Of a stretch of 64,000 nucleotides of DNA, positions 28,117-62,500 are shown piece by piece. Where the stretch lies: the NCBI GenBank assembly GCA_963717425.1, contig OY970335.1:1777226-1841225 (forward strand), read 5' to 3'. Each line of letters opens with the position of its first letter. Within the stretch, counting starts at the first letter, position 1. The position numbers and the translations under genes were made by a program. This DNA is from Vulcanimicrobiota bacterium. GTDB lineage: Bacteria; Vulcanimicrobiota; Vulcanimicrobiia; Vulcanimicrobiales; Vulcanimicrobiaceae. The notes under the pieces are model-generated. The model had not been told where the DNA came from and searched no databases. It worked only from the letters and a program-made list of their open reading frames with translations.

Positions 28117-28192
28117 AGCTTTATTTTCCAATGGTTTTTGCTCGAGCGAGAGAGCAATTTAGCGACGGTAAACCGGGTCTGGCTCCCCTAAC

Positions 28193-28214
28193 GTGTCTCC
28201 TAAGTGTCTCCTAG
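28193..28214 (+). repeat. Tandem 11-bp direct repeat GTGTCTCCTAA/GTGTCTCCTAG between selC and the integrase gene.
   Basis: Read directly from the sequence. The position inside the presumed attL arm suggests arm-type recombinase binding sites. Confidence 0.6.
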
Positions 28215-28226
28215 ACCCAATGCTCG

Positions 28227-34286: not shown

Positions 34287-34732
34287 GACTGCAGCGCTCC
34301 GAGATGGAGCGCGTGCAGGGTCGCATCGACTGTCTCCCACGGAAGGTGAAAGCCGGCCGCCTTCAGCGCTCGCTGTGCCGCGGTCACATCGGCCTTGGTG
34401 AAGCCATAGGGCCAGCGGCTCGGGTCCGAGTTGCGCATCGGCCAATTCGGGTGAGCCGTGCCCTCGTACTCATTGATGAAGACCATCGACCGATAGCCCG
34501 AGGGTTTAGTAGCGCGGATAATCTCCTTGGCACGCTTGGGGATGTTCGGGAATCCGAAGCGCGCGCAGCGGTCGCACTCCAGACCCTCTTGCTCGACCAC
34601 GACCGCGCGCTCTTTCTCGATCCTTGTGCGACAGCGGAGAACGCACCATTCACAGTACAGGCGTCCGCGAACGTGATAGAGCGTCACGGGGAGCCGATAG
34701 GTGGGTTTTCGGGCCCGCATCTCAGAGTCCAA
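34283..34732 (-). CDS. Hypothetical Cys-rich protein.
   Basis: ORF coupled to both neighbours. Contains CEWCVLRC...CDRC, a possible zinc finger. No family recognised. The start is 34732 or 34720. Confidence 0.5.
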   Translation of the reverse strand: MDSEMRARKPTYRLPVTLYHVRGRLYCEWCVLRCRTRIEKERAVVVEQEGLECDRCARFGFPNIPKRAKEIIRATKPSGYRSMVFINEYEGTAHPNWPMRNSDPSRWPYGFTKADVTAAQRALKAAGFHLPWETVDATLHALHLGALQS

Positions 34733-44633: not shown

Positions 44634-46510
44634 TAGAGTAATAGCCCGCCGATAACAATCACCACTCGGCAATTCATGTATTCGTTGGTCTGGGCTGCGC
44701 CCGGGCTTGTAGTAGGGATAGCGATGCCACGAGCACGGCAGATGTCGAAGCCCTCGCAATCGTAGGGATCCATGCTCGATGTGACTGACCGAAGCGTCAG
44801 GCTAAAGGACTTACGGACACCGAGGACCTGCACAAAATGCATCCCCGGGGAAAGGTTAAATGGCAACCCATATTCTTTTCGACGAATTGCTGGTTCGGGG
44901 AGCATCCCGTCGTCGAGTGTCACACTTGCTTCCTCGATAGTAGGATGATCAAAAAAGATTTGCGGCGGCGTGGGCTGAAAGTATTCCGTGCCAACTCGCA
45001 GGCCCCGGCGAAACGTTACTCGAGCGCGATCTGGCGCCAAGAGATCCTCGAGTGCTGCGGGAATCGCTTCCCGCTCTGCGCGAGGTGCCCGTGCAGTGAC
45101 GATCGCAAGCTGCGGGGCCCCGTAACAATCACGGATCGCACTGTTCGCCCCCGAAATTGAGGCGAACGCTGCGCGGAGCGTTTCGGCAGTCTCTCGCGAA
45201 CAAAGCACGGCACAAAGGTCTCCAGCTCGTAGTTGGGTAGTCGCGATCCAACCTGTTCCATAGTTCGCGAATGTCACCACGTCATCCACAGATACCAGGC
45301 CTTTAGTGCCATTTGCTAATTCGTACATTATCGCGCCTTCATCCCATAGAAAGGACGTGGTGTCGGCGTCTTGCCAATCGTCCCCACCGATCCGACGTAC
45401 TTGAACGGACAGCTTCCACGGCAGCGCACCAATGTTCGCTCGGAGCACCAGGCGCTTTTCGAACGTTGTCCGATTACGATGTCGAGATGGCAGAGCCGCG
45501 ACGCGCCCGATGGCGTCTGCGATCGGGCTTATACGTTCCCCTTTTTGAGTCGAAATGTGCGATGACGCGCGCTCGGCTGGCCCACTAGTAATTCCCAAAG
45601 GATCGTGAGAAGCACGAAGCCCTCTTTCGGCGAGCTTTCGGTGCACAGAAGGCATGACCGTATCCTGAGGGTCGCAGCGATCCAGAAACCACCGCACGTA
45701 CTCCGTTTCGACGAGGTCGACGAACCCCTCGAAGAGGTGGCCCTCAGCGTGGACGAGTTCCAGCGTGTGTTCGAGAGCGTGAGAAAAAGCGTAGTCTCCG
45801 GGGTGCTGTAGCTCGTCGAGCATCATGTCGCGAATATCGCTCCGTGTCAGCTCGCGTCGACCCGCGCAGCGATGATCGAAGTAAAAGGCGAGCTGACGCC
45901 TCGAAGAAGCGCTGAGCAATACCTGAACTCGCGCTCGCCAAACATACTTTCCACCAAATGCACTATTGACGAGTAGGAGGCGCCCACGTCGACCCCCGCA
46001 ATTCACCTCAAGATAGTCTCCAAGCTCACGATAAAAGGACGTTGCATCAGAGAAGTGTGGGACATACGGAGTATCTCCCAGACCGAGCAAGTGTCCGAGC
46101 TGACGATGGAAGTATGCGCGCCGTCCTCCTTCGATCGCGTCGCCACTTTGTGAAGCCGCCAATGAAAAAACCGCTAATAATCCGACGTAATATGGAGGAT
46201 CGCGGTCCGCGACAGAGCGGCGTAACCAAGGGTGCCACCAGATGAATGGGTCGGCGTCGTGATGACGGATCAGCGCGCATATACTTTCCTTGAAGTTTTC
46301 AGGCGAGCGACCCATTTCCGTCGCGACCGAACGTAACTCACCGTCATCGAAGGACAGGATCCGGACAGCACCTGTGTCGGTTATAGGGAAGTAGCGCTGG
46401 AATATGCGATCATTCCACTCAAAGTAATCGGCGGCGTGGTCTGAATCGACGTCCGTTGCGGAACTCGGTTGGAGCGGCATCCCGTCGCGATTGGTCGGAC
46501 CAAGCGCCAT
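44633..46510 (-). CDS. Hypothetical protein, first gene of the helicase operon (625 aa).
   Basis: Long ORF with ordinary amino-acid composition, coupled to the downstream gene. No family or motif recognised. Confidence 0.7.
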   Translation of the reverse strand: MALGPTNRDGMPLQPSSATDVDSDHAADYFEWNDRIFQRYFPITDTGAVRILSFDDGELRSVATEMGRSPENFKESICALIRHHDADPFIWWHPWLRRSVADRDPPYYVGLLAVFSLAASQSGDAIEGGRRAYFHRQLGHLLGLGDTPYVPHFSDATSFYRELGDYLEVNCGGRRGRLLLVNSAFGGKYVWRARVQVLLSASSRRQLAFYFDHRCAGRRELTRSDIRDMMLDELQHPGDYAFSHALEHTLELVHAEGHLFEGFVDLVETEYVRWFLDRCDPQDTVMPSVHRKLAERGLRASHDPLGITSGPAERASSHISTQKGERISPIADAIGRVAALPSRHRNRTTFEKRLVLRANIGALPWKLSVQVRRIGGDDWQDADTTSFLWDEGAIMYELANGTKGLVSVDDVVTFANYGTGWIATTQLRAGDLCAVLCSRETAETLRAAFASISGANSAIRDCYGAPQLAIVTARAPRAEREAIPAALEDLLAPDRARVTFRRGLRVGTEYFQPTPPQIFFDHPTIEEASVTLDDGMLPEPAIRRKEYGLPFNLSPGMHFVQVLGVRKSFSLTLRSVTSSMDPYDCEGFDICRARGIAIPTTSPGAAQTNEYMNCRVVIVIGGLLL

Positions 46511-46969: not shown

Positions 46970-49045
46970 ATGACTAGGTTCGAACTGAAGACGACTCTCT
47001 CGGTGCTTGAGGACCTCGGAATCAACAACTACACCAACGCCGCCGCCGTTCTCTCAGAGATCGTGGCGAATGCTTGGGACGCTGACGCTTCCAACGTCTT
47101 CGTTACGGTCAGCGGCAGCGGCGCAAGCCGCGTGATGACGATCGAAGATGACGGCGTCGGCATGACTGCTCTCGAGATCAATGAACGCTATTTGACCGTT
47201 GGCTACAAACGGCGCGATGCGCCGGGCGGAGGGCGAACTCCGTTGGGACGCGCAGTGATGGGGCGTAAAGGGATCGGCAAACTAGCCGTATTTTCGATCG
47301 CTTCGAAGGTCGAAGTGCACACCGTTAAGGGAAGGGCGCGGAGTGCATTCTCGATGGACCTAGCAGATCTTCGAGCGGACGCCAAAGCACAACGGCCGTA
47401 TTATCCCAAGGATCTCGCCTGTGTTAAGAACTTGACACGCGGTACGAGAATCGTTCTGCGCGGTATCAATGCATCTCTGACCCTCACCGACCGCTTCCTG
47501 CGACGGCATCTTTCCCGTCGCTTCACCATCATTGATGGCGCTCACGGCTTCTCTATTACAGTCAACGGGAAGCCTTTGACGCTTGCGGATCGGGAGTATT
47601 ATCCGAAGCTACAGTACATCTGGCATTATCACATGCCCGTCGTGCCGACTCTCGCTACAGCGGCGGAACAGGAAGAGGCACGCAACTTCCAAGTCTCGGT
47701 CCCCAATAAGAGCGGCAACGCGACTAAGTATGCGATATCCGGCTGGATCGCTACGGTAAAACAGCGTTCCCAACTGGCATCGTCGGATGACGACAACCTC
47801 AATCGCTTGTCTTTGGTCGTGCGCGGTAAACTCGCACACGAAAACTTTCTCGAGGAGTTCAGTGAAGCAGGGGTGTATGCAACTTATCTCATCGGAGAGA
47901 TGAACGCGGATTTCCTCGATATTGACGACAAGCCGGACATTGCAACGCCGAGCCGCCAGCGAATCGTCGAGAGCGATCCCCGTTACGTGGCTCTCAAGAA
48001 GTTTGTCCAGGCCGAACTGAAACACATCGAGTCGTCTTGGACCGCAATTCGCAACCAGACTGGACTTGAGTCCGCCCTGGAGATCCCAGCGATTTTTCAA
48101 TGGTACCAAGGCTTACAGCCCCGCGAGCAGATGATCGCGACAAAGCTATTGGGTCGGGTCAACACCTTACCGATTGAAGCCGACGAGCGACGAACGCTAT
48201 TTAAGCAGGCCGTTCTCTCGTTCGAGGTCTATAGGGTCAAGAGCAATCTCGACGCCCTGGAATCGATGTCATCTGACCAACTAGCTGCAGTCGGAGAGAT
48301 CTTCAAGAGTATCGATGACATCGAGGCAGCTCTTTACCTGCAGCTGGTTCGACAGAGGATCGGGATAATCGACGCCTTCGATCGCATGGTAGGTGAGAAT
48401 CAGAAGGAAGTCTTCCTGCAAAGCCACGTTTTTAACCACCTCTGGCTATTAGACACGGCTTGGGAACACGCCACTGAGAACGCTGTCATGGAAAAGAGCG
48501 TTCTCAAGATGCTCAAGGACGCAACAGGGAAGCCCACCAGTTCACTTTCAAGAGAGGTCGCTAGATCTCGCGTCGATATCCGATACAGGCTCGTCAGCGG
48601 TCGGCACGTGATCATCGAGCTCAAGCGCGCCAACAGGGTAATGAACACCGCCGACCTGCTGAAGCAAGTACAAAAATATGCGGCCGGAATGCGGAAGCTA
48701 TTGGCGGATAGCGGTGGCGCTTACGAACCATTCGAAATCATCGTACTGGTGGGGAAGCGGTTGAGCGATTGGAGCAACGATCCTGGGGCGGAGGAAGTCT
48801 CGCGGAAAACCTTTGCTCCGCATCAGACCCGAATTATGATGTACGACGAGGTGCTACGAAACGCGAAGAGTATGTATGGGGAGTTCGTCGCCAGAGAGAA
48901 GGAAGCATCAAAAATTGGGGCTATTCTCGAAAGCATCGACGAATCGGATATTCCCAAATCCGGTATTCTGGTACCAGGAGCCAATAAGAAGAGCCTTCCT
49001 CAGACTTCGGCGATGAAGCCGATCGTGCGCAAGAAACGACGATGA
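46970..49045 (+). CDS. GHKL/MORC-like ATPase (HATPase_c_3) fused to a C-terminal PD-(D/E)xK nuclease-like module; candidate ATP-dependent restriction component.
   Basis: Bergerat-fold motifs SEIVANAWDA, TIEDDGVGM and GRKGIGKLAVFS. C-terminal VDIRYRL...HVIIELKR (D at 48576-48578, E-L-K at 48617-48625). The stop overlaps the vsr start (ATGA at 49042-49045). Confidence 0.8.
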   Translation: MTRFELKTTLSVLEDLGINNYTNAAAVLSEIVANAWDADASNVFVTVSGSGASRVMTIEDDGVGMTALEINERYLTVGYKRRDAPGGGRTPLGRAVMGRKGIGKLAVFSIASKVEVHTVKGRARSAFSMDLADLRADAKAQRPYYPKDLACVKNLTRGTRIVLRGINASLTLTDRFLRRHLSRRFTIIDGAHGFSITVNGKPLTLADREYYPKLQYIWHYHMPVVPTLATAAEQEEARNFQVSVPNKSGNATKYAISGWIATVKQRSQLASSDDDNLNRLSLVVRGKLAHENFLEEFSEAGVYATYLIGEMNADFLDIDDKPDIATPSRQRIVESDPRYVALKKFVQAELKHIESSWTAIRNQTGLESALEIPAIFQWYQGLQPREQMIATKLLGRVNTLPIEADERRTLFKQAVLSFEVYRVKSNLDALESMSSDQLAAVGEIFKSIDDIEAALYLQLVRQRIGIIDAFDRMVGENQKEVFLQSHVFNHLWLLDTAWEHATENAVMEKSVLKMLKDATGKPTSSLSREVARSRVDIRYRLVSGRHVIIELKRANRVMNTADLLKQVQKYAAGMRKLLADSGGAYEPFEIIVLVGKRLSDWSNDPGAEEVSRKTFAPHQTRIMMYDEVLRNAKSMYGEFVAREKEASKIGAILESIDESDIPKSGILVPGANKKSLPQTSAMKPIVRKKRR

Positions 49046-49431
49046 GGCGTTCCTCGTCCGAACGCATGCGTCGAGTTGGCCGACGCGATACTGACTGCGA
49101 GTTGCGCCTTCGGTCTCGTTTGCATGCGATTGGATTTCGGTATCGAGTTGACTATTGCGTCGAAGGTTTGCGCACGAAACCTGATATCGCATTCGTCCGG
49201 GCAAGGGTCGCTATCTTCATCGACGGTTGCTACTGGCACGGATGTCCGGAGCATGGGACAATCTCTAAGACAAACGTCGGATTTTGGCGAGCGAAGATCG
49301 AGGGCAATCGAGAGCGGGATCGGCGCTTGACGAAGGACCTGACTCGGGCAGGCTGGCGAGTCGTGCGGTTGTGGTCACACGAATCTCTTGGCACCATGCT
49401 GGAACGAATTCGCGACGCATTGACGCGTTAG
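49042..49431 (+). CDS. vsr: Very-short-patch repair endonuclease.
   Basis: RMRRVGRRDTDCELRLRSRLHAIGFRYRV...KPDIAF...VAIFIDGCYWHGCPEHG...FWRAKIEGNRERDRR...GWRVVRLWSHE is collinear with E. coli Vsr as I remember it. Confidence 0.9.
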   Translation: MRRSSSERMRRVGRRDTDCELRLRSRLHAIGFRYRVDYCVEGLRTKPDIAFVRARVAIFIDGCYWHGCPEHGTISKTNVGFWRAKIEGNRERDRRLTKDLTRAGWRVVRLWSHESLGTMLERIRDALTR

Positions 49432-50576
49432 AATGCCATCACCTCCTCGTGGTGAAGCAAGTCTTCTAAGAACTGCGGGGGATAATGAAGATTGCTCCTC
49501 TCAAGACGCCCACGGAAGCCACGCGTCGCGCGCTCCGACAGCGGTGGCGGCTCTTGCGTCAGGAATCGCATGATCGGCGTCATTTCTAGGAGTACTGGAA
49601 AGGCACTGACCTCTATCGAGTAACGCTCTCCGCTGCGCCCCCAGGCTGCGAGCGGCCACGGCCCCGATTTCGGGAACCTCCTGCCGCGCAAATCGCGTTT
49701 GGTTTCGGGCACCCGACCAAGCCTCTTACCGATCCAGGAGGCAACTGGGACGCTGACGGCATTCCCGATCATCTTCCAGCGTTTGCGCTCAAACCTGGGA
49801 ATATCGCTCCCGATATCCGTCCAACCGATCGGGAAGCCTTGCAACGCCTCGGCATCCGCGATCTGCGGCATGACAATGGACCGTCGACGCCTCACCCAGA
49901 TCGCCGGGGGTGATGGAATGTGAATCCCGGAGCCGCTCTTCAGTGGGGGTACGGAATCATCAGCCCAACCTAGCCCGGCATTACCCTCGGTCCAATAGAA
50001 GCCGTGCGCCTGAACGTCATCGTGTCTAGGTGCATGTCCAACATCCTGGTCGAGTAGAATGCTTGGCGCAGAGTCGTCAAGCGATGCAACAAGAAGCCAA
50101 CGTTTCCGACGCTGCGGCAATCCGAATGCGGAAGTATCGACGATGCGATACGACCACGTGTATCTCATTGCCTCAAGCAAACGTGTGACATACGCAAGCG
50201 CTTTCCCGCGCTCAAGGTGAACGATGTTTTTGACGTTTTCCAAAACGATAAACGTGGGAAGGCGCTTCCTCGGGGTCTTAGCGATGAGCGCGAACATCCG
50301 CCGCAGGAGATCACGGCTGCCGTGCAAGCCGCTCGTCGGACCCACCTGACTGAAAGTCGAACAAGGAAAACCCGCGAGAATTGCATCTGACCGAGGTAGC
50401 TGTGTAATATCGAAAATATCCCCCGCAATGTCGCTCGTGAACCGATGCCGAAGGACCGATCGGCATGCATCATCGATCTCGTTAAGAAAAACCGCGTGAT
50501 GCCCGGCATTCTGAAATCCGAGTTCCAAGCCGCCGATTCCGGAAAAGAGACCTACGACTTGCAATCTATCCTCCAT
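49428..50576 (-). CDS. dcm: DNA (cytosine-5)-methyltransferase.
   Basis: Start at ATG 50576 (MEDRLQVVGLFSGIGGLELGF, motif I). GFPCSTFS (motif IV), VLENVKN (VI), QRRKRWLLVA (VIII), GNAVSVPV (X). The 131 codons upstream in the ORF are Arg/Ser/Pro-rich and probably not translated. The stop overlaps the vsr stop convergently (TTAG). Confidence 0.93.
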   Translation of the reverse strand: MEDRLQVVGLFSGIGGLELGFQNAGHHAVFLNEIDDACRSVLRHRFTSDIAGDIFDITQLPRSDAILAGFPCSTFSQVGPTSGLHGSRDLLRRMFALIAKTPRKRLPTFIVLENVKNIVHLERGKALAYVTRLLEAMRYTWSYRIVDTSAFGLPQRRKRWLLVASLDDSAPSILLDQDVGHAPRHDDVQAHGFYWTEGNAGLGWADDSVPPLKSGSGIHIPSPPAIWVRRRRSIVMPQIADAEALQGFPIGWTDIGSDIPRFERKRWKMIGNAVSVPVASWIGKRLGRVPETKRDLRGRRFPKSGPWPLAAWGRSGERYSIEVSAFPVLLEMTPIMRFLTQEPPPLSERATRGFRGRLERSNLHYPPQFLEDLLHHEEVMAF

Positions 50577-50636
50577 TGAGCATCTGATCGAGGCGGTTCC
50601 ATCCACTGCGATCGCTGGAAAGGCGATAAGTACTCC

Positions 50637-50680
50637 ATTAGAAGCGTTTTCCCTCGAGATTAGAAGCGTTTTCCCTCGAG
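50637..50680. repeat. Perfect 22-bp tandem duplication ATTAGAAGCGTTTTCCCTCGAG x2 in the dcm/UDG-like divergent intergenic region.
   Basis: Read directly: 50637-50658 and 50659-50680 are identical. The repeat lies about 60 nt upstream of the dcm start. Confidence 0.9.
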
Positions 50681-50968
50681 CGGCCTTGGCTGGGCCGCGT
50701 CGGGCTTCGCACGGGACTGAAATACGCCGAAGAAAGACAGCCCGGATCAGCCACGAATAGGGGCGCCGCGATGCTTCGTGCGAGTGACTGGGACTCTGTT
50801 GATCCGCGAAGCCTGCCGTCGTTCGGGACGCGCGCTCTCCAGGCGCCTTGCCCGTAGGCGTCCGCTCGCGGCCTCCCTGCGGGCCAGTCTCATACGATCT
50901 CGTGCTGGGGCTTCGGGGTACGGTCGGCGAAATGCGGGCCGCTTGTGAACACTGCAAACGGGAGCCCA

Positions 50969-51706
50969 ATGACGGCAGTCCGAGAAGTCTTCGATTCGAT
51001 AGCCTACTGCAAGAACGTTGCGCTGTGCCATCACGGGGGCGAATCGCACCCCTGCGCCACGATCGTTCGGTCGCAGCACGTTTCAGACGCCAATTTTCAA
51101 CTGCCAGAGCCGTGGCGCGGCCGGATCGACAAGGCGCGCATCCTATTCATAGGCTCCAACCCTTCGATCGGCGACGATCGGTACGCGCTTCAGTCTTCCC
51201 CTGAAACGCAGGTCTGGGAGTCACAGCATCTCGCATTCGGCGGCGGAAGCCGGCCATACGTCATAGACGGCATCAGGACGACTACGGCCACTGGGTCGCC
51301 CGACCACGTCGTACGCTATTGGTCGTCGATTCGGGCCAGGGCGCGCGAGTTGATCCCATGCGCGGTCCCGGGCGAGGACTACGCGATTTCTGAAGTCGTG
51401 CACTGCAAGTCCAAGGGCGAAGAGGGAGTCGCCGAAGCAGCCCAGACCTGCTATGCCATGCACATGTCGGCCGTGTTTTCGGTCGCGGCCGCGAAGGTCA
51501 TAATCGTGCTTGGCAAGTTCGCCAAGGAACAGCTGCTGGGTGCCGTGCCCGCTCCTTCGATTCCATCGCAGCTGGAGCTGGGAGGTTGGAAGCGGACCGT
51601 GCTCTTCTTGCCGCATCCCAACGCCAGAGGCGTACGGAAAGCCCTTGCAGCGCACTATGCCGGTGCGGACTTAGAGGCGGTCAAAGAGCTAATCGCGGCC
51701 CCTTGA
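50969..51706 (+). CDS. Uracil-DNA glycosylase superfamily protein (MUG/TDG- or family-4-like).
   Basis: ATG 50969 is preceded by GGGAG. ILFIGSNPSIGDD resembles the GINPG/GMNPG catalytic motif. FLPHPNARG resembles the HPS/NPSG C-terminal motif. An N-terminal Cys cluster is present (CKNVALCHHGGESHPC). Confidence 0.55.
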   Translation: MTAVREVFDSIAYCKNVALCHHGGESHPCATIVRSQHVSDANFQLPEPWRGRIDKARILFIGSNPSIGDDRYALQSSPETQVWESQHLAFGGGSRPYVIDGIRTTTATGSPDHVVRYWSSIRARARELIPCAVPGEDYAISEVVHCKSKGEEGVAEAAQTCYAMHMSAVFSVAAAKVIIVLGKFAKEQLLGAVPAPSIPSQLELGGWKRTVLFLPHPNARGVRKALAAHYAGADLEAVKELIAAP

Positions 51707-51720
51707 GAACACCCAGGGAG

Positions 51721-52473
51721 ATGGACGACGAGACATTCCTCGCATTCGTTCGCAATAGCGCCGCCAAATGCGATCTCGAGACGCTTGAAAAAGCCGTTAA
51801 GGCGCTAAGCGATAGCATCGCCAGTCGGCGCTGGGGGAGGCCGCCAGGTCTCGAAGTTGGGTCTCACGTTGCGGCCGTCGATTTCGATGGATGCTTTGGA
51901 TGGTACGGCACAGTCATTCGGTTGACGGGCCAGGGTTGCATCATCGAGCCGCCGGCTGCAAAATATACCCAGCGAATCTCGTTCAAGAGGTTCATAGTGC
52001 GCATCGTGGACGAGTTTGAATGGAATCGCGCATGTATGGCCGCAGAAGAGCGAGCGCACGACTTCGCCGAAAAAAAGGTTCGAGAAGATGCCGAATTGGA
52101 GGCGGACCGGGAGGACGCAATTAAAGATCGCGCCCCTGCAGCTCAGCGCCCCAAAAATATGCTGGCGATGAATGGTGCGGTAAGTGTGTACCGAGGAGCG
52201 TTCGTTCACGCTTATCGTCCCGACTGCGATGACCACGAGTACGGCGTGGTCGTCTACATGACGCCGAAGGCCCTGGACCTGAGTAGCCCGGAATCCGCGT
52301 GGATCCATCGAGTCGTCGCGGTGAAACATGAAATCGACATCCTGAGCGAGGGAGAGTGGCAAGTGGTGGATGCCGAGTTACGACGGAGGCGAGCGGAATA
52401 CGAAGCAGCGGAAAAGGCCGGGAAAACATCCGATCTGATCGACTACAGTAATGTCAGGATCCCCCTGCGTTGA
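51721..52473 (+). CDS. Hypothetical protein with two similar small beta-rich segments, each followed by a charged helix.
   Basis: ATG 51721 is preceded by CAGGGAG. The internal repeat is seen by eye (...GWYGTVIRL...IVRIVDEFEWN vs ...YGVVVYM...AVKHEIDILSEGEWQ). No family recognised. Confidence 0.5.
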   Translation: MDDETFLAFVRNSAAKCDLETLEKAVKALSDSIASRRWGRPPGLEVGSHVAAVDFDGCFGWYGTVIRLTGQGCIIEPPAAKYTQRISFKRFIVRIVDEFEWNRACMAAEERAHDFAEKKVREDAELEADREDAIKDRAPAAQRPKNMLAMNGAVSVYRGAFVHAYRPDCDDHEYGVVVYMTPKALDLSSPESAWIHRVVAVKHEIDILSEGEWQVVDAELRRRRAEYEAAEKAGKTSDLIDYSNVRIPLR

Positions 52474-52609
52474 GAGGTGAAGCTGGAGCGCTGCGCTAGT
52501 GCCGGACTAGCGTCGCTGACGGGGCACTCGGAGTCCACATCGCAAGCAATTCGAGCAGGCAGACGGCCGCATCCCTCGAACGCAGCCTTGTGCGCGTGCG
52601 ATCCGCGGC

Positions 52610-53857
52610 TTGCCGTTCCTGGACAACCCGAGCCGCCACGGTCTTGATCGAAATGCAGTCACACTACCTGTGATACCCCAAGGCCAGGACCCACGCGGAA
52701 ACGCTCACACTCCAGCATCGTCCGAGCCCGCGTACCTCTTAGAAACTCTTCGTATCATTGAAGCAGCCACCAATCACGATGCGGAGAAGCTGTCGATCTT
52801 CGTCGCGGCCCTCGTAAATAAGCTCCGCGAAAACGGCTTCGCTCACGCTGGGAAGCTTATCGAAAGAGCGTTTAACCGGTCGCGCGAGAGGCAGCTCTCC
52901 CCACAGTCATTGGGGCGCACAGTCGAAGGAGGGCTGCGGATTCCAGTTGACCCGGAGACTCACGTACCGCTAGCGGACGTCGAAACGCTTTCGGTAGACG
53001 ACTTGGGCTACGAAGCCGATCCGTTGACGTCGGCTAATACGTCTTCGTTCCTGTCCTTCGCGCGTAATCGGGGCAAGCTTCTCGCGAGTGGAATCTTCGT
53101 GCCGACGAATCTTCTGCTGCACGGGCCGCCTGGCTCCGGCAAAACGATTACTGCGAGATACGTCGCCGCCGCTCTCGGCCTGCCTATTATAACCGCCAGG
53201 ATGGATGCCGTTGTCTCCAGCTACTTGGGAAACACTGCAAAGAACATCCGCTACATTTTTGATGCAGCATCGTCGCAAAATGTCGTGCTGTTCCTGGATG
53301 AGCTTGATGCGATCGCGAAGGCCCGAGATGATGAGCACGAGCTTGGCGAACTAAAGCGCGTGGTAATAGCGCTGCTCCAAAACATCGACTCCGTGAACGG
53401 GAAGCTGATCCTGATTGCGGCGACTAATCACGAGCATCTTCTTGATCCGGCGATTTGGCGGAGGTTCCCGCACCGCGTCGGATTTCAGTCTTCCACGCTT
53501 GACTTTAGAAGGGCGCTGTTCGCGAGGTTTTCGACCGGGTTGCCGCCGGTCTGGTATGATGCCCTCGCACATGCCTCGCGTGGCCTAAGCGCCGGGGATA
53601 TACGCGAGATAACACAACGCGAGCAGATCAGCGCCATCATTGAAGATCGACTTATCCTTCCGGCCGCATTGCTGCGGAGCACGCTTGGCGTCGCTTCAAA
53701 GGGACCGGGCGGTTCGTACATGCCGATCGCGGATGTCGCCCGACGCGCAGCTTCCCGTGATAGTAAGTATTTTACTATTACTAGGCTGGCGAATCTACTT
53801 GGGGTTAGCCGCAGCAGGATCACAAGTTACCTTCGTAGGGCACGGCGTGCCAGATAA
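52610..53857 (+). CDS. AAA+ ATPase (classic AAA clade), IetA-like.
   Basis: LLLHGPPGSGKTITARYVA (Walker A), VVLFLDELDAI (Walker B), LIAATNHEHLLDPAIWRRF (sensor/Arg finger region). An S8 protease gene lies immediately downstream. The TTG start is uncertain. Confidence 0.85.
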   Translation: MPFLDNPSRHGLDRNAVTLPVIPQGQDPRGNAHTPASSEPAYLLETLRIIEAATNHDAEKLSIFVAALVNKLRENGFAHAGKLIERAFNRSRERQLSPQSLGRTVEGGLRIPVDPETHVPLADVETLSVDDLGYEADPLTSANTSSFLSFARNRGKLLASGIFVPTNLLLHGPPGSGKTITARYVAAALGLPIITARMDAVVSSYLGNTAKNIRYIFDAASSQNVVLFLDELDAIAKARDDEHELGELKRVVIALLQNIDSVNGKLILIAATNHEHLLDPAIWRRFPHRVGFQSSTLDFRRALFARFSTGLPPVWYDALAHASRGLSAGDIREITQREQISAIIEDRLILPAALLRSTLGVASKGPGGSYMPIADVARRAASRDSKYFTITRLANLLGVSRSRITSYLRRARRAR

Positions 53858-53903
53858 CTTTCAGCTCCCCATCCAAAGGGTGCTCAACCGCGACGGAGAC
53901 CGT

Positions 53904-56108
53904 ATGGCACGGCACGCTGGCGGAGGAGCAGATACTGTTTTCGAGGATGACGGCGAAGGTGGAGGACAAGGGGGTGTGCTTGCGGTCCTACCTCAGATCG
54001 AGCGAGAGGTAAACGCGCTTTCAGCAAGGTTCCCCTCAGTCCCGGCCGTTCTTCGCGTTCGCCTTAAGGACAATGCGCTCGCAAAGACACACCGGCCGAC
54101 CTCCTTATTCGACGAAGAAGCGCCCATAATAGGCGGCGAGGGGCCCGGAGAGTTGCTTGTTGCGGCCATGCCGCACTCACTCGCGGTTGTACGGCGCCGC
54201 GTCTCCAACCCCACCTCGCAGCGGATGCGCGCTAATATCTCAACAATTAGAGAAATGAACCTTGTCGAGCCGCGATCGAAGGTGGCTGAACTCCCGCATG
54301 AACCGAATGCTGATGGGCGGTATCAGCTTAAGGTAAAGCTATTCGATTATCACGATCAAGGCGTAAACGATCAATCACTGCGGAGGTTCATGACGTATCT
54401 CCATGAGCTTAACGTTGACGATCCAACAGTCCACCAGTATGCGCCAGATCTAAGAGTATTCGGGCTTGAGGTCGCCGATTTAGGGTTGGCTGAGCGGATC
54501 GCAGAGTTTCCGACCGTGAGGGCGGCGACGGCCTTTCCTCAGTTTGGCCACGATATTGACTTTGCGGCAGTGTCACTGGGGGCGCTCCAACCGGAGCGTC
54601 TTCCTCCGCCGGCTGCCGGCGAGCAGTATCCAGTGGTTGGGATGATTGACGGCGGAACCGACCCCGCGAACGCGCCGCTTCGCCCGTGGATTACCAATCG
54701 GTATGAGCCCTCCCCAGGTGCTGACAGGAATTTCGCTCATGGCACCTTCGTGGCTGGACTGATCGCAAGCCCAAAATCCCTTAACGGGCTTCTTGAGGCA
54801 TTCCCACCCACAAAGTGCCGGATCGTCGACGTGATCGCGATGCCGACCACCGGCCTTAGGGAACCGGAGCTCCTTGCAACGATTGATGCGGCTCTCGTAC
54901 AATTTCCAGACGTCCGAATTTGGAACATTTCCCTTGCGCGCAACGTCCCCGCCCATAAGGATGAGTTCAGCGATGTAGCGCGGGCGCTCGACGCTCGGCA
55001 GGATCGTCACAATGCCCTTTTTGTTATCGCCGCTGGAAACTACCGGACGCCGCCGCTCCGATCGTGGCCACCTCAGCCCTTAGCAGATCGAGATCGTGTA
55101 GCAGCACCCGGTGACTCAGCTCGCGGCCTCACGGTCGGGTCCGTTGCACACCTCGATAACGGTATATCGGCCGTGAGGACCGGTGAACCATCACCATTCT
55201 CTCGCCGTGGACCCGGCCCGTCGTTTATCCCGAAACCCGAACTTCATCACCACGGTGGGAACTGTTCGGCAAACGGCGACTTTCGCCAAATTGGCGTTCA
55301 ATCTGTCAACGAGCAAGGCTTGCTTGCCGAAGACGTGGGGACGAGCTTCGCAACGCCGATCATCTCATCTATTGTCGCGAACGTCGATCGCGCGCTCGGT
55401 GGCGGAGCTTCGAGGAACCTCCTCAAAGCGCTAATGGTGCATAGTGCGCTACTAAATAGCGGTCCCGACGTATCACCAAGTGACTTAAACTACTACGGCT
55501 TCGGAAAACCAACTGACGTTGTTGACGCGCTCGCGTGCGATCCGTGGTCATTTACGTTCCTGTTTGAGCCTAAGCTAGTCGCGGGCTATTACTACAATAT
55601 TTGGCCGTTCCCGCTTCCGGCGTGCTTACATCGAAACAATCGGCTATATGGCGAGGTTATAATGACATTGGTTTACGATCCGCCATTAGACAAAAGCTAT
55701 GGCTTTGAATATTGCCGGAGCAACGTCGAGGTTTCATTTGGAACGTACCTAGAGGACGCGGAAGGGAAGCGCCACCAGGCCGGCAAGGTGCCTGCGGACC
55801 CGGCGAGTCCAGACCTGGCTTTCGAAAAGTCTCGAATCGAGCACGGTTTCAAATGGTCGCCGACTAAGGCGTATAGGAAGCGCTTTCGTGGGACTCGTGG
55901 CGACGTTTGGAGACTCATGGTAGAAATCTTACACAGAAGTAACTTCGCGCCGACTGACCCGCAGCGCGCTGCCATTATATTGACGCTACGCGATCCGGAC
56001 AAGAATCGACCAGTTTATACTGACACGATGGACGCGATTCGATTAGTGGGCCGCCCGATCAGCGCACTCCGCGTACGAGACCAAGCGCGCTATCGGCGCC
56101 GAGCCTAG
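53904..56108 (+). CDS. S8 (subtilisin-like) serine peptidase, IetS-like.
   Basis: ATG 53904 is preceded by GGAGAC. Catalytic contexts are VVGMIDGGTD (Asp), HGTFVAGLIA (His), VIAAGNY (oxyanion Asn) and GTSFATPIISS (Ser). The N-terminal region of about 230 aa is of unknown fold. Confidence 0.85.
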   Translation: MARHAGGGADTVFEDDGEGGGQGGVLAVLPQIEREVNALSARFPSVPAVLRVRLKDNALAKTHRPTSLFDEEAPIIGGEGPGELLVAAMPHSLAVVRRRVSNPTSQRMRANISTIREMNLVEPRSKVAELPHEPNADGRYQLKVKLFDYHDQGVNDQSLRRFMTYLHELNVDDPTVHQYAPDLRVFGLEVADLGLAERIAEFPTVRAATAFPQFGHDIDFAAVSLGALQPERLPPPAAGEQYPVVGMIDGGTDPANAPLRPWITNRYEPSPGADRNFAHGTFVAGLIASPKSLNGLLEAFPPTKCRIVDVIAMPTTGLREPELLATIDAALVQFPDVRIWNISLARNVPAHKDEFSDVARALDARQDRHNALFVIAAGNYRTPPLRSWPPQPLADRDRVAAPGDSARGLTVGSVAHLDNGISAVRTGEPSPFSRRGPGPSFIPKPELHHHGGNCSANGDFRQIGVQSVNEQGLLAEDVGTSFATPIISSIVANVDRALGGGASRNLLKALMVHSALLNSGPDVSPSDLNYYGFGKPTDVVDALACDPWSFTFLFEPKLVAGYYYNIWPFPLPACLHRNNRLYGEVIMTLVYDPPLDKSYGFEYCRSNVEVSFGTYLEDAEGKRHQAGKVPADPASPDLAFEKSRIEHGFKWSPTKAYRKRFRGTRGDVWRLMVEILHRSNFAPTDPQRAAIILTLRDPDKNRPVYTDTMDAIRLVGRPISALRVRDQARYRRRA

Positions 56109-56381
56109 CGGCTAGCCGCCGCGCCCCTGCCTCGCTGTACCCTAGGCCAAGAATTACTTGCGGTTGGACCTCGAAATTGTGCGCTCGACCTCGCCGCCGG
56201 ATAGGGGAATGTCGAGCGGACTGGCCGGAACGCCCGGGCGGGCGATGCAACTCTAGCGCGGATCCACTGCGTGCGCACAAGGTTCGCAGCAATCAGAATG
56301 CGATATTTACGCATCGAGGAGGGCGGAGTGCGACCCGGTCTGTAAACGCTCGGTTGACTCGTGGTTTCTTAGGAGGTTTCC

Positions 56382-57308
56382 GTGACCGTATCGAGGCGCG
56401 TAAAGGAAGCAGATGCTGAGGCTTTCGCGGAGGTTTTGTCTAAGACAGCGTTGCCAGGAGGTACGGCAAGATTTGGCCATTTCGCGCTGCGAGGAAAGAG
56501 TGGCGTTAGAGACCGGATCAACTGGTCGAACCGTACGAACGGCAACGACCTCATCCTCGGCAAGCAGGAGTACACGTTCCCTTGCGGCGCGGCAGACGTT
56601 CAACTCTCGCTGCAACTCTATTTCAACGTGCGCCGCCACTATCGCCTTTTCGCATATACGAGGGCTGGCGATGTAGAAGGCATGACGTTCTCGGTCAACC
56701 TTACGACGAAAAGAGAATCGCGAAGCGTCATATTCCTGGAGCAGCCGATCAGTTTCAAGGAACGCTATCCGGATGCCCGAGATGGTGGCATCGAGCGCCG
56801 CCGGCAAAAGCAGATTCTGCTCTGCGATGTGCTTAGGCGCATCGGCATGGACGTCGACGATGATGCGAGGCTGGTTCTCGGCGTCTTCGATCCGCAGGGC
56901 CGAATGCTGCTCGACGCCACACCCGAGAGCTTTCTGAATAACTTCGTCGCGGCAGCGCTGTTGAAGGGCCACTTTCAGGGCAATAAGGGATATGAGTTGG
57001 ACGTCATTCCTTCTATGCGGGCCGCATACGATCTCTTCGCGCCAGCGAAAATGAATCCAAAATGGAAATCGCTGAGGGGGCGTCGCCCTGCTGGGCGCCC
57101 TCCAATTCCGTTAGCGGTACGTTACAAGGTCCTCGCGAGGGATCGGAGCGTATGCCGAAGGTGCGGACGGGGAGTGGCGGGAGGTCTCACTCTGCACATT
57201 GACCACAAGACCCCGGTTTCGCTCGGCGGCGACAGTGGCCTGAAGAACCTCTGGACGCTTTGCAGCGAGTGCAACCTCGGCAAGGGCAACCGCATCATCG
57301 ACCGCTAA
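56382..57308 (+). CDS. HNH endonuclease with an N-terminal domain of about 230 aa of unknown function.
   Basis: GTG 56382 is preceded by AGGAGG at 6-nt spacing. The C-terminus is CRRCGR...LHIDHKTPVSLGGDSGLKNLWTLCSECNLGKGNR (HNH with a CxxC...CxxC zinc site). Confidence 0.85.
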   Translation: MTVSRRVKEADAEAFAEVLSKTALPGGTARFGHFALRGKSGVRDRINWSNRTNGNDLILGKQEYTFPCGAADVQLSLQLYFNVRRHYRLFAYTRAGDVEGMTFSVNLTTKRESRSVIFLEQPISFKERYPDARDGGIERRRQKQILLCDVLRRIGMDVDDDARLVLGVFDPQGRMLLDATPESFLNNFVAAALLKGHFQGNKGYELDVIPSMRAAYDLFAPAKMNPKWKSLRGRRPAGRPPIPLAVRYKVLARDRSVCRRCGRGVAGGLTLHIDHKTPVSLGGDSGLKNLWTLCSECNLGKGNRIIDR

Positions 57309-58261
57309 ATTCGCGTTATCGCCTTGAGGGCCGCGCATCGACAAAGTGCGTCCTCGATGAAATCCTCCGGCGGCTGCTCAGACTCGCTCGACTCGTTAAG
57401 CTCCAAGCCGCCGCGCAATTCATCCTCGGCCACCCCGCCGGAGGCGGGAGCGTCACGCGCCTCGCACCGGCAACGTCTTAATGCGGCGTAGCAAAATTTC
57501 CACGCAACCGACGACAGTGATGCGTCGGGTCGCGTTCGGCTACCGATTCGGCGATGCGCACGCTTCCGGCGCTCAACGCTGCGCTTCGCGCCACCGTTCG
57601 GCGGCAGGGCTGATCACGATTTTCCACGCGGCGCGCGTCGCGAGAGCGGCTAAGGAGCGCAGGCCTCGGATACTGACCAGCCCAGCTTTTGGTATCGAGA
57701 AGTACCATTATCGTTAGCTAAGGGGCGAACCGTGGCTCATCAGGGCGTCCATCGCCGAAACGGCTCCCGCTATCGCAATGGCTATGGGCTCATTGCGGAC
57801 TCATCCGAGCCGAAGGGTCTCTAGCGCGTTTGGCGACGCAGTCGGTTGTAGGGTATAGCGGCAGCCAACGTTTCAATCGAGGCCCTATCAGAGAGGCAAA
57901 CGAGGGTGACGACATGGCTGCGCGGGTTTCTCTGCAAGTTAGGCGCTTATTACACCCCGTGCGCGATGCCATGCCGCCGGCGATAGTTTAGCCGATTCCC
58001 GAATCCAATCTAGCCCGTTATAGTGCTTCAACAAGGTTGTGAATTGTGGCCTTGGGTTCGATCGTCCGAGTCAAAACGCGACCCACACTAGAGCCGGCTC
58101 GGGCACCGACGGTTAGGAAACGTGCAGCGCCTTTCTTATCAAACATTTTATTCGTTTATACAGGCATTCAGCTCCAGAGGGGGCTCAATTCAAACGCTTG
58201 CTCCAGATATTTGCGCCGACGCTAATGAGGAAGAACCAAGGTGAGTCACGTCAGCACTGGC

Positions 58262-58651: not shown

Positions 58652-59536
58652 TTATTGAGCAAAACGGTGCGAATCCCTCTCTAACTTGGACCACAACTTG
58701 TTATAATTATAATTGTAATGCTTCCTATTCTGAAATGCAAAATTCTCAAGCTTCATTTCATTTACGATAGCAGTATTGCCATCGAGAACGTTTGTGGAGT
58801 CGGTAAAATACAACTCCTTCAGGTTATGGTCAGTCCGTAGGGGATTTAACGACGCAATATTTCCCACGTTGTCGAGGTGTAAGCACTCAAGCTTCGGTAA
58901 GTTGGTAATGACGTCGACGCTTTTCAACTTTCTACAGGTTTGAATCCTAAGGTCTCGCAGCGATTTGAGTGAACTAATGGCAGTAAAATCGTCTAGCTTA
59001 CGGAGGTGGGAGAGTGTGAGGTTTTTTATGCCATTGCATCGCTCGAGCCCAGACAAAGTGCGAAGCGGCCCTCCGATGAGCTCAAGCTCGCGCAAATAGG
59101 GGGCCGTACCGATGACTTGTAGATTCTGATCGCCCCATGAGAAAACTCGCAGCGTGGTTAGCAGGGGTGCTCGCCAAAGATTAACGAGCTTGGGTCCCCA
59201 TGGGACACTCAGCTCCTCGATCAGCGGCCACGACGCAGGATCAGCATCGAAAAAACTATCAGATTGAACCGTCAAGACCCGTAGGTTATGGAGGTTCGCA
59301 ATCCCATGAATATCAAATGCGGTCCGGTTTATTATGTGGAGTCGCTCTAGATTTCGAAAGCCTTGCAGTAGGCTGATGTCACCGGTCCTACGTCGCCACA
59401 GAGTCCAGATCTCTGTTACACAAGATCCGGCGGGTCCGATCTCTCGTAATAGTTCTGGCGTTAAAGGATCTGCTAGCAGCAGCGATATGCTATCATGCGC
59501 CGATTCAAGCCGAAAGCCAGACGTCGGAAGTTGCAC
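58652..59536 (-). CDS. Leucine-rich-repeat protein; candidate cognate immunity protein of the RHS toxin.
   Basis: 294 aa with repeated LxxLxLxxCxxL units (LRELELIGGPLRTLSGLERCNGIKNLTLSHLRKLDDF...LRDLRIQTCRKLKSV...LECLHLDN). The GTG start is 8 nt after the RHS stop. The gene is markedly A+T-richer than its surroundings. Confidence 0.8.
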   Translation of the reverse strand: MQLPTSGFRLESAHDSISLLLADPLTPELLREIGPAGSCVTEIWTLWRRRTGDISLLQGFRNLERLHIINRTAFDIHGIANLHNLRVLTVQSDSFFDADPASWPLIEELSVPWGPKLVNLWRAPLLTTLRVFSWGDQNLQVIGTAPYLRELELIGGPLRTLSGLERCNGIKNLTLSHLRKLDDFTAISSLKSLRDLRIQTCRKLKSVDVITNLPKLECLHLDNVGNIASLNPLRTDHNLKELYFTDSTNVLDGNTAIVNEMKLENFAFQNRKHYNYNYNKLWSKLERDSHRFAQ

Positions 59537-59544
59537 GTAGTTTT

Positions 59545-62500
59545 CTACGGAGGGCTTTGCTGCGTACTTTGCTGGGGCCGTGCTCCTTGAGCGTTGATCT
59601 TATTGGCTACGTTGGGATTACCCACGCCGCCCGCCTCATCTATTGCATTTTGCTCCGCGGTTTTTAGATTGCCAGAAACCGCCCGGGTCTGGACTGATCC
59701 AAAGTTCTCGCTTGTCAACTTTCCGCTCCTGATATGCTGGGCCATTCTTTGTCCGATGTTTATCGATCTACCGACATACGTCTTTCCTTGCGTGATGAAT
59801 CTGTATATTCCCCGAGCGACGCCACCCGCTAGCGCTCTGCCAGCAGCGGCGGCGGACGCCGCGGAGCGAGCGGTTGCGGCGGCAAAGCCTCTCGCGCTGC
59901 TCGCGAGCGCAGCGTCACCCACTGCTTCGGCGGCCTCACCAACAGCCAGAGCACCGCCTTCGACTACGACGGCGCCTACTGCCGCCTCTCCAACGCACGC
60001 GTCTTCGATACAATAACCGCTCGGATCGTTGTACTCGACTGGATTATTATCGTTCCACATGAAGGACTTTTGAGACATCGGGTCATGCACATCACCGGCA
60101 TATGCGTCAGGGGTCGTCCAAGATCCCGACGTGTTGTCATACGAGCGCGCGCCTTGGATTGTGTCGAAGCCGTCAGTCAATCCATCGGTCCGTGGCATGC
60201 CGAGTACGCCACTAGATCCCATTGCCCACCCTAAATCTGAACCATTGGTACCATCGTACGCTGAGCCAAACCATCTGATCGACTTTGGTTCATTCGGCGT
60301 CGTGAGAGGAAAGCACGGCGAGTGCCAAATGCTCACCTCATTCCGGAAGAAGGTTTGATTCCAACTGTCGCCGAGACCGGCAAAGGTACTTGCGTTAGCG
60401 TTATGGCAGCCGATGACCACGCCGCCGGGGCCACGATCGTAGAAAGTTAAGCCGGCATATCCCGTATCTTGCGGCAGGATGTCACCTTGGGCTCCGATCT
60501 TGATGTCGTCGAGTGCTGCAGTCGAGCCGTCGCTGGCAAATAGCAACTGATTTCCGTCCCAGTGAAGGACCTCGTTGTGCAGTTTTCCAGAGCTGTCAAA
60601 AGTGCCGATCATAATCGGATGGCCGTTGGGACCCCAGCTTATTCCCTGCTCGACCGGGGGGCTCACATTTACTCCCGAAAACTCCGTGTTTAGTAGATGA
60701 TTTTCGGCGTCGTACGTTCGGCCCACTGTTGTGGCCGCAAACGTTCCGGTGCTAAACTGCTTCCACGGCGCGGATTGACCATTCATTTGGCCTGCATTAC
60801 TGTAATTCCAGGTCGTAGGGATAGAGTTGCTGCCAAAAGGGACCTGTTGGGTCTGCACGCCCATAAAGGCGTCCCAGTAGTACGAAGTTGCGCTGCTAGG
60901 CTGTAGTCGAATCATCACGCCGTTAGCTAAGAATCCACCTCCGCCAAGATAGTTCTGAGAACTTGGCGATGACACCAGCTCCCCACGCAAGCTGTAGCCC
61001 CACGTGGGTGGCCCCTGAGAGGAGCCTTGAATGGTGGTGCTGAGTAACTCGCCCTCCGCGCTGTATGAGAAGTTTAACAGGCTGGTGGCCGGAGAACTAT
61101 ATGAACTCTCTTGTCCATAGCCGTCGTAGGTTATGGTTGTCGGAGTCGCGTTTTTAGCGATGCCAGTCTCAGCGCGGTTGTTCATTCGTCCCGTATTGTC
61201 GTATGTGTAGACGATATTTGTTATTCCCGCATTCTTGATTTGGCTGCCAAGGGTTCCATCATTGATGGTTTCCGTTCCGATAAGCCCATCCTGACGGTAA
61301 GAATAGCTGAAGAGCGCAGCTTGCGTTACGGCCGCCGAAGAGACGTCGACGCTTTCCAGCGTGCCGTCGGGATAATAGTTATGCGTAACGACGGCGGATG
61401 ACATCCTGTCGCTATTTGTATCACCGCTGGGATCAGTCGAGGTCCGGAGCCGCCCATCGAGGTTGTACGTGTATAGCTGGGGGTTGCTGTAAGCTCCCGA
61501 CGTAATTTGTGCCGGCTGACCGTCTGGGTCATACAGATAGTCTCGTTCTGGAGAAGATCCGCCGCTGGACTCGAAGGTCTTCTCTTTCCCATCCTCGCGA
61601 TAATCGAACTTCTGGCATTGGCCTAAAGCGTTACAATCGGTACCAAGCAGTCCTGCAACATTACCGCTTCCGAGCGGAGTGATATCCCAAGTCAGTGCCT
61701 CTGTACTCAGTGTCTCCGTATTCGATTGGTTAACTAAGGAATATTTCGCAACGGCCCGATCGACATCATCGTATGCGGTTGCCTTGATGTTTTGATAGCT
61801 AGTATTAGGTACCGTTTGCGGGTTAGCATTGTACTGTATAGAGGGATTCGCTGATCCCAAAAGCTCTTGCGTCGCGTAGAGGTTACCGTAGGCTTGAAAC
61901 TGCGCGCCGTGAAAAGATTTTTGGCTGCCGTCCAAATCGTACAGGTAGCGGGTTACCCATGGATTCTGATATGCATCGCTGTCGGCTTGCGGGAGTTTGA
62001 CCTCGACGAGCCGATCGAGCCCGTCGTAGTACTTGCACGTCGTTCCGGCGCCAATCGAGGCGCTCGGCGTGCACCATGACGGCGTAGACTTTCCCGCCTT
62101 GCAGCCTCCGGGCACGCAGTTGTGGTGGCGCGCCTCGGTCGCGACATCACCGTCGGGATCGTAGCCGTACGCGACAGCGTACTGCGGTGGTGTTGCGCCC
62201 GACTTCAACTGGCTATCGGTCGGACACGATGGTCCCCCGTCGAGGTGATACTGCCAGCCGGTCTCACTGTAGAAAACGCTCCCATCGAGATTGTAGCAAA
62301 TATTAGATGATATATGCAGATCGGGATCGGTGCGCCTGGTTACACGGTTCATTCCATCGGTAGTGTACTGCAACACCCATTGGGTATTGCTCGTGGGGTA
62401 GCTGCTGTATGTAGACAAGTTGCCGGCGGTCGTATAGGCAAACTTTTGGTGCGGGATTCGATTGTTGTCCTGACCGATCGCAGTGCCTGTGACATCGGTG

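Follow-up and report, generated by a model that had tools for sequence, protein, structure and literature searches.

Does the gene pair that encodes an AAA+ ATPase and a subtilisin-like protease in an uncultured-lineage genome of the phylum Vulcanimicrobiota (Eremiobacterota) constitute an anti-phage system, and, if so, how might its two products act together? The pair, referred to here as ietA and ietS, occupies positions 52610-56108 of a 64,000-nucleotide stretch of contig OY970335.1 (assembly GCA_963717425.1, positions 1,777,226 to 1,841,225), which belongs to a Candidatus Cybelea metagenome-assembled genome; the whole stretch is called the window, and all positions are given in its numbering. 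A first-pass annotation had proposed that the pair is a distant IetAS-type system located in a defence island. IetAS is the anti-phage system also designated Gao_Iet (Gao et al. 2020, as cited in PMC13069673), and its components are named IteA and IteS by NCBI. On the sequence evidence described below, the pair clearly belongs to the IetAS family, within a moderately divergent clade, and, by analogy with its homologues, the locus very probably represents a complete, apparently functional module of the toxin-antitoxin type that acts by abortive infection.

Gene models and family membership

The two genes and the translation signal of the second are arranged as follows (aa, amino acids; nt, nucleotides).

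52610-53857, + strand: ietA, 415 aa from TTG 52610, or 395 aa if translation begins at GTG 52670
53893-53897, + strand: Shine-Dalgarno sequence GGAGA of ietS, 6 nt before ATG 53904
53904-56108, + strand: ietS, 734 aa from ATG 53904; predicted cytoplasmic S8 (subtilisin-like) serine peptidase with a putative toxin/effector role

The open reading frames (ORFs) and their translation agree with the composition reported in the first-pass annotation, in which a 415-aa AAA ATPase containing GPPGSGKT and LFLDELD is followed by a 734-aa S8 peptidase. Both genes lie on the + strand, and the ORF listing and the sequence place a spacer of 46 nt between them. The start of ietS at ATG 53904 is also the one used in the public record (P0001, 734 aa, 100% identical). 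The start of ietA is ambiguous: NCBI gives the 415-aa form and another gene caller chose GTG 52670, which yields 395 aa (P0121), IetA homologues are mostly 369-390 aa long, and the family profiles start aligning at about residue 43 of IetA. Hydrophobic segments were found neither in IetA nor in IetS, the latter of which also has no signal peptide, and both proteins are therefore likely to be cytoplasmic.

PADLOC and NCBIfam profiles served as equivalents of the DefenseFinder Gao_Iet hidden Markov models. The first-pass annotation had let its assignment hinge on a profile match to IetA and IetS, and full-length matches were indeed obtained: IetA aligned with PADLOC PDLC02196 (E = 2e-100, 334.8 bits), its residues 43-411 covering positions 4-371 of the 374 in the profile, and IetS with PDLC02197 (E = 5.4e-229, 760 bits), its residues 30-728 covering positions 47-747 of 749, and the NCBIfam IteA and IteS profiles were also matched over their full lengths (1.2e-94 and 4.7e-210, respectively). 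Every defining feature of IetAS, in the PADLOC/DefenseFinder sense, that was checked is present at the locus, namely the profile matches, the gene order, the ATPase motifs, and the Asp/His/Ser triad. The closest relatives among 5.8 billion proteins are two metagenomic proteins with 67% and 62% identity, and the remaining matches lie near 40%.

Among named homologues, the pair most resembles IteA/IteS of plasmid p1-T1 from Acidovorax sp. T1, as named by the NCBI annotation pipeline PGAP, with which it shares gene order, strand, protein lengths, and domain layout. The N-terminal helical domain, the AAA+ core, and the C-terminal motif are common to both IetA proteins, and the specific N-terminal region, the S8 domain, and the C-terminal beta domain are common to both IetS proteins. 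Identity by BLASTP is, however, only 38% for IteS and 39% for IteA, end to end, and the host phylum here is Vulcanimicrobiota. Moreover, the genes overlap in p1-T1, in contrast to the 46-nt spacer of the present pair, and our IetA carries an N-terminal extension of 20-40 aa that is common to its closest relatives only.

A second point of reference is the IetA/IetS toxin-antitoxin system of Ti and Ri plasmids, represented by pTiC58 (Yamamoto et al. 2009, as cited in PMC8562856), on which IetAS was originally defined as a toxin-antitoxin pair, a point missing from the first-pass annotation. Because pTiC58 was absent among the plasmid matches listed, pRi1724 was used as a stand-in for this lineage. 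It also has an AAA ATPase upstream of an S8 peptidase of about 750 aa, and the two IetA proteins share 36% identity from end to end, with the helix-turn-helix (HTH)-like motif discussed below present in both; its IetS, on the other hand, is 25% identical end to end with many gaps and a barely recognizable N-terminal region, and the pair is plasmid-borne, whereas ours is in a chromosomal island. By description, TA132/133 of Mycoplasma is likewise similar, comprising a 353-aa AAA protein upstream of a 757-aa S8 peptidase (PMC6755753, PMC8562856), and its genetics are those of IetAS, the protease being the toxin and the ATPase its antitoxin. Unlike the island pair described here, TA132/133 is a chromosomal toxin-antitoxin system in a minimal genome.

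Conserved pairing and mobility of the two genes

Conservation of the pair was examined at 80 metagenomic loci obtained with an IetS profile, together with genome, plasmid, and contig loci, which were searched by tblastn with the ietA-encoded protein. An IetA homologue was found upstream of IetS on the same strand at all 74 of the related loci that have at least 1 kb of upstream DNA, so that conserved pairing, the second finding on which the first-pass annotation had made its assignment depend, is borne out, and four annotated plasmid loci have the same ietA-ietS arrangement. Across loci, the IetA stop codon lies at a median distance of 53 nt from the position that aligns with residue 1 of IetS, and the identities of IetA and IetS co-vary over the loci (r = 0.60).

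The neighbouring genes behave differently. By tblastn, homologues of the 158-aa ORF upstream of ietA, of a uracil-DNA glycosylase (UDG)-like protein, and of the HNH protein downstream of ietS were found at none of 87 related loci, which rules out these tested neighbours as a conserved third gene of the system. Since no other neighbour is conserved, ietA and ietS form a self-contained two-gene module that is the unit of inheritance. The variant ietHAS (Liu-DS4), which needs an adjacent SNF2-family helicase, IetH, besides IetA and IetS (PMC13069673), was considered and rejected: the upstream gene is the unrelated 158-aa ORF, the sole nearby helicase, DruE, belongs to a Druantia-like cluster on the other strand and ends about 9 kb upstream of the pair, and with no adjacent helicase the variant does not apply.

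IetAS homologues are frequent on plasmids, beside integrases, and in unrelated genomic contexts. The locus of the closest relative (JGI 3300034842, Ga0377260_0264; 1169-7753), with 67% and 62% identity, adjoins a phage-type integrase, an HTH_17 excisionase-like gene, and a STAND/NB-ARC-like ATPase. This wholly different neighbourhood indicates that the pair moves horizontally as a cassette.

Domain organization of IetS

The features of IetS are listed below; all are on the + strand, and the four catalytic residues were located by translation.

53904-54608, + strand: N-terminal family-specific region, residues 1-235; two predicted alpha/beta modules
54627-55505, + strand: S8 catalytic domain, residues 242-534
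54648-54650, + strand: D249, catalytic Asp
54738-54740, + strand: H279, catalytic His
55038-55040, + strand: N379, oxyanion Asn
55344-55346, + strand: S481, catalytic Ser
55536-56063, + strand: C-terminal beta-rich domain, residues ~545-720

The Pfam match of IetS is Peptidase_S8 (E = 2e-25, residues 242-534), and Pfam gives no assignment for residues 1-241 or 535-734; the E-values of this match and of the AAA match of IetA (given below) lie well outside chance expectation. The catalytic set of Asp, His, Asn, and Ser, which had been described as intact, proved to be so: D249, H279, N379, and S481 are invariant across 25 IetS homologues and are paired by hhalign with Asp32, His64, Asn155, and Ser221 of subtilisin BPN'. 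The earlier statement that about 230 N-terminal residues are unassigned holds for Pfam but not for the IetS family profiles, which span that region.

In the homologue alignment, conservation within IetS is lowest in the N-terminal region. When residues 1-235 were scanned against 1.84 billion representative proteins, 207 proteins were matched at E <= 1e-3, always at the N terminus of proteins that are about 740-790 aa long in full, and at E <= 1e-30 the query alone was recovered. Because the matches are confined to IetS-like proteins, and the query stands alone at the stricter threshold, the region is exclusive to IetS and fast-evolving. AlphaFold modelled IetS with good confidence (pLDDT, the per-residue confidence, 87; pTM, the predicted template modelling score, 0.90) and placed alpha/beta modules at residues ~45-135 and ~140-210 and a beta-rich domain at ~545-720. 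The second of these modules has the order beta-alpha-beta-beta-alpha-beta, which is typical of subtilase propeptides. In a fold search, the top Protein Data Bank (PDB) matches were pro-form or multi-domain subtilases, including ProN-Tk-SP (3afg, E = 7e-23), KP-43 (1wmd), pro-subtilisin E (3whi), Kex2/furin, and PCSK9, and the alignments with pro-forms extended over ~435-580 columns, versus ~305-317 for mature subtilisins. The longer pro-form alignments and the topology suggest, without proving it, that part of the modelled N-terminal region superimposes on a subtilase prodomain. A picture of the IetS N terminus as specific to IetS, fast-evolving, and prodomain-like in appearance thus emerges as new from this work.

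The motifs EYCR, HGFKWSP.K.Y, and WRL of the C-terminal domain are strongly conserved. The fold matches to KP-43 and Tk-SP run ~180-270 columns past the length of mature subtilisin, which is consistent with the modelled IetS covering the extra domains of those enzymes. A PDB sequence search with IetS at E <= 0.01 gave no match, and no solved IetS was found.

Domain organization of IetA

The corresponding features of IetA, numbered in the 415-aa form, are as follows.

53123-53146, + strand: Walker A, GPPGSGKT, residues 172-179; invariant in 25 homologues
53216-53230, + strand: equivalent of pore loop 1, S-S-Y-L-G, residues 203-207 (translation and alignment)
53288-53308, + strand: Walker B, LFLDELD, residues 227-233 (translation and alignment)
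53753-53851, + strand: C-terminal HTH-like motif, FTITRLANLLGVSRSRITSYLRR

IetA matches Pfam AAA (E = 5e-31) and is a classic-clade AAA+ ATPase that, by analogy with its homologues, most likely acts as an antitoxin or regulator. The sensor-1 Asn and the WRRF arginines, the arginine fingers, are intact according to the translation and the homologue alignment. In all 25 aligned IetA homologues, S, S, L, and G of the pore loop are invariant and the aromatic position is Y or F. The structure model (pLDDT 85) comprises an N-terminal three-helix region, a conserved PVD.E...LAD linker, the AAA+ core, and a C-terminal three-helix tail. The tail corresponds to the conserved C-terminal HTH-like motif, which is recognized here for the first time: its three helices are predicted with pLDDT > 88, its signature FT..RLA..LGVS...I...L is conserved in the family at the F/T/L/S/L positions of the homologue alignment, several sub-threshold HTH matches in Pfam coincide with it, and it is kept even in the distant pRi1724 homologue.

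The nearest solved folds to the AAA+ core are protein unfoldases, i.e., proteasomal Rpt subunits, FtsH, and p97, and a PDB sequence search with IetA returned generic AAA+ unfoldases only, with no solved IetA. An AAA+ unfoldase encoded beside a protease recalls the logic of FtsH, Lon, and the PAN-proteasome, and the pair could on that ground be taken for a housekeeping two-component ATP-dependent protease that serves protein quality control and has no role in conflict. We consider this highly improbable. Subtilases are non-chambered proteases, the profile matches single out IetA and IetS (the NCBIfam scores of IetA to proteasomal ATPase and FtsH profiles are far lower than those to IetA profiles), the relatives are patchy and occur on plasmids and in unrelated contexts, and the pair itself resides in a low-GC (guanine plus cytosine), integrase-bearing island with defence-gene neighbours, as described below.

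A perfect 7-bp inverted repeat, CGCTAGT-N5-ACTAGCG, is present at 52494-52512, ~100-160 nt before the candidate ietA starts. Possible roles are that of an operator bound by the HTH-bearing IetA and that of a terminator stem of the upstream gene; its sequence is not kept in the 67%-identical relative, and it may be due to chance. A repeat search of 51500-57500 gave short, chance-level matches only.

Proposed function

The role of the pair can be approached through the genetics of its homologues. In the pTiC58 system, IetS acts as the toxin and IetA as its antitoxin, ietS could not be cloned alongside a mutated ietA, and protease activity was required for defence (PMC13069673). In JCVI-syn3A, knockout of the AAA gene alone is lethal, while loss of the pair or of the protease is harmless (PMC6755753), and neutralization of IetS-type toxicity has been seen in mycoplasma and E. 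coli, the mycoplasma pairs acting as toxin-antitoxin systems in several hosts (PMC8562856). Phage resistance is known for E. coli and Bacillus homologues (PMC13069673; 10.1101/2022.08.27.505566), and IetAS of Bacillus cereus acts by abortive infection and becomes toxic upon expression of YosG from phage SPbeta (10.1101/2022.08.27.505566).

By this analogy, free IetS would be a toxic cytoplasmic subtilisin-like protease, and IetA, which is probably co-transcribed and most likely hexameric, would keep it harmless in uninfected cells. A phage protein or process might then disable or divert IetA, or act on the variable N-terminal region of IetS, and the released IetS would cleave essential cellular and/or phage proteins, so that the infected cell would stop growing or die ahead of progeny release, i.e., undergo abortive infection. 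The same logic would make the pair an addiction module for its mobile island. As for the means of restraint, the unfoldase-type core with its Tyr-Leu-Gly pore loop and the prodomain-like, variable N terminus of IetS suggest an ATP-dependent engagement, and our preferred guess is that IetA engages this N terminus via the pore loop and maintains IetS in a zymogen-like state. Simple sequestration of IetS by IetA may operate instead. The C-terminal HTH of IetA may autoregulate the operon or bind DNA.

A more elaborate version of this idea, which we put forward tentatively and regard as rather unlikely, is a zymogen switch gated by the AAA+ protein, in which the IetS zymogen would be held latent by an IetA unfoldase gripping its N terminus in an ATP-dependent manner. 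The tandem prodomain-like N-terminal region would serve both as an intramolecular inhibitor and as a phage-sensing surface, a phage protein competing for or blocking IetA would free the active subtilase, and the C-terminal HTH of IetA would couple the switch to DNA binding or to operon autoregulation. If true, this would be a regulatory principle so far undescribed in bacterial immunity.

The same structural features might be read in the opposite sense, with IetS as an auto-inhibited zymogen and IetA as a sensor and activator, its ATPase being needed for killing and not for restraint. On infection, IetA would unfold or strip the prodomain-like N terminus of IetS, or feed IetS with unfolded substrates. 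The unfoldase-type fold and pore loop of IetA would suit such a role, as would the modelled resemblance of the IetS N terminus to subtilase prodomains and its status as the fastest-evolving part of the protein, which would be expected of a regulatory or sensing surface. The genetics, however, are the reverse of those expected for a pure activator, because in three lineages the protease kills when the ATPase is missing, and the ATPase can be dispensed with after removal of the protease (PMC6755753; PMC8562856), and the failure to clone mutated ietA with ietS points the same way. An activator role for IetA is thus disfavoured and, in our view, improbable.

Several points weigh against the reading of the locus as an abortive-infection module of the IetAS type in which IetA restrains a prodomain-like IetS. 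The proteins miss the cut-offs of the NCBIfam equivalog models, IteA_antiphage (NF042959) being matched with 317.5 bits against a cut-off of 510 and IteS_antiphage (NF042956) with 699.6 bits against 900; scores under these cut-offs explain why the public name is merely "S8 family peptidase". The pair would accordingly be placed by sequence in the broader IetAS family and not in the NCBI equivalog class, and the word "distant" in the first-pass annotation, whose family assignment stands, is fair relative to the equivalog models and otherwise overstated. Together with the identity of ~38-39% to named homologues, the sub-cut-off scores mean that specificity, trigger, and targets may differ. For this locus and phylum the function is read from homologues, and the anti-phage and neutralization mechanism of IetAS is itself still unsolved as of 2026 (PMC13069673); no published mechanism of IetAS turned up in a literature search, in keeping with the first-pass statement and with the wording "remains unknown" in PMC13069673.

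With regard to the mode of restraint, when 25 IetS homologues were scanned with Pfam at E <= 1, neither the propeptide domain Inhibitor_I9 nor any other N- or C-terminal domain was detected, and hhalign of the IetS alignment with pre-pro-subtilisin BPN' aligned the catalytic domain only, the propeptide remaining undetected, so the prodomain-like reading of the models has two sources, the fold-search ranking and the secondary-structure topology. In addition, the aromatic residue of the pore loop is replaced by Leu in the IetA homologues of Acidovorax and pRi1724, a further difference between our IetA and the plasmid-encoded ones, which weakens a universal model of threading through the pore loop.

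Finally, a promoter and terminator scan of 51600-56600 gave nothing above shuffled expectation in a useful position. The lack of a recognizable promoter and the uncertain start of IetA are the sole hints that the pair might be an inactive, decaying remnant, which is most improbable, given that neither ORF is truncated with respect to the family profiles, that the catalytic and nucleotide-binding residues are all intact, and that ietS has a good Shine-Dalgarno sequence.

Genomic island and neighbouring genes

The first-pass placement of the pair in a defence island, one that has been acquired horizontally, is borne out by its surroundings, which include Druantia-like, restriction-modification, HNH, and Rhs genes as well as integrases.

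28023-28116, + strand: tRNA-Sec (Rfam)
28227-29447, - strand: tyrosine integrase, directly after tRNA-Sec
34722-35696: second integrase
38113-46510, - strand: Druantia-like cluster, DruE with weakly DruL-like and DruF-like neighbours
38113-43677, - strand: DruE helicase, 1854 aa (PADLOC E = 0), with an MrfA Zn-binding domain
46970-49045, + strand: GHKL-ATPase-type type II restriction enzyme (PADLOC REase_II, 1e-89)
49428-50969, - strand: ORF of a divergent C5 cytosine methyltransferase, 378 aa in the public record
50969-51706, + strand: UDG-superfamily protein
51997-52473, + strand: 158-aa ORF directly upstream of ietA, no Pfam or PADLOC match
56451-57308, + strand: HNH nuclease protein directly downstream of ietS, 285 aa, C-terminal HNH domain (7e-11)
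58652-63924, - strand: leucine-rich repeat (LRR) protein of 294 aa, downstream of a very large Rhs-repeat protein

Bases 1-27,000 of the window carry housekeeping genes, including those for a TonB-dependent receptor, SelB, ClpB, an S9 peptidase, and TypA/BipA. From the tRNA-Sec and integrase to the end of the window, the GC content falls from ~0.63-0.66 to ~0.55-0.59, and 28023-29447 looks like the left boundary of an island of at least 36 kb at the selC-equivalent locus. An Rfam scan of the window detected tRNA-Sec alone, the 3' end of that tRNA does not recur within the window, and the right end of the island was not found there.

This setting bears on the possibility that the pair is primarily an addiction module, which would stabilize the island by post-segregational killing and have a secondary or absent anti-phage effect here. 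IetAS was first found as a stability and incompatibility determinant of pTiC58 (as cited in PMC13069673 and PMC8562856), the present pair is in an island with two integrases near tRNA-Sec, and the frequent occurrence of homologues on plasmids and beside integrases agrees with such a role. The homologues, however, confer protection from phages and respond to a phage protein as trigger (10.1101/2022.08.27.505566; PMC13069673), and the immediate neighbours of the pair are defence genes and not maintenance genes. Addiction is compatible with defence and does not exclude it; as the primary role of the pair it seems to us possible, if distinctly less probable than abortive infection.

Upstream of DruE are a 360-aa protein with a weak match to DruL4 (3e-09) and a 625-aa protein with weak matches to DruF2/F4 (1e-13), which makes the Druantia-like cluster a candidate for subtype II or IV. 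The C5 methyltransferase matches DruM2 (1.8e-31), but the type II methyltransferase model fits far better (1.3e-107). The UDG-superfamily glycosylase beside it could be a functional analogue of Vsr that repairs the T:G mismatches arising from deamination of 5-methylcytosine. The 158-aa ORF apparently lies outside the IetAS system. The HNH protein, whose N-terminal region of ~230 aa has no domain assignment and which is not kept beside IetAS elsewhere, is possibly an independent defence nuclease. At the island edge, the LRR and Rhs genes form a polymorphic-toxin locus, with a secretin gene next in the source contig; the Rhs ORF is 1459 aa in the window and 1619 aa in the public record, with a weak DUF6531 match. 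Outside the island, beside selB, a 941-aa protein (12234-15059, + strand) combines an N-terminal adenylate/guanylate cyclase domain, an AAA_22/STAND-like P-loop region, and TPR repeats, with only a very weak PycC match (6.7e-4).

Implications

As a system, the pair is an ordinary further copy of a known family and offers nothing beyond what a better-behaved E. coli or Bacillus homologue does. For annotation, the locus and its relatives deserve the IetAS label in place of the "AAA family ATPase" and "S8 family peptidase" of the public record. The IetS N terminus, the conserved IetS C-terminal domain, and the HTH-like tail and pore loop of IetA provide handles for work on the mechanism of IetAS. 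The finding also extends the host range of IetAS to Vulcanimicrobiota (Eremiobacterota) and documents a defence island linked to tRNA-Sec in this little-studied phylum.

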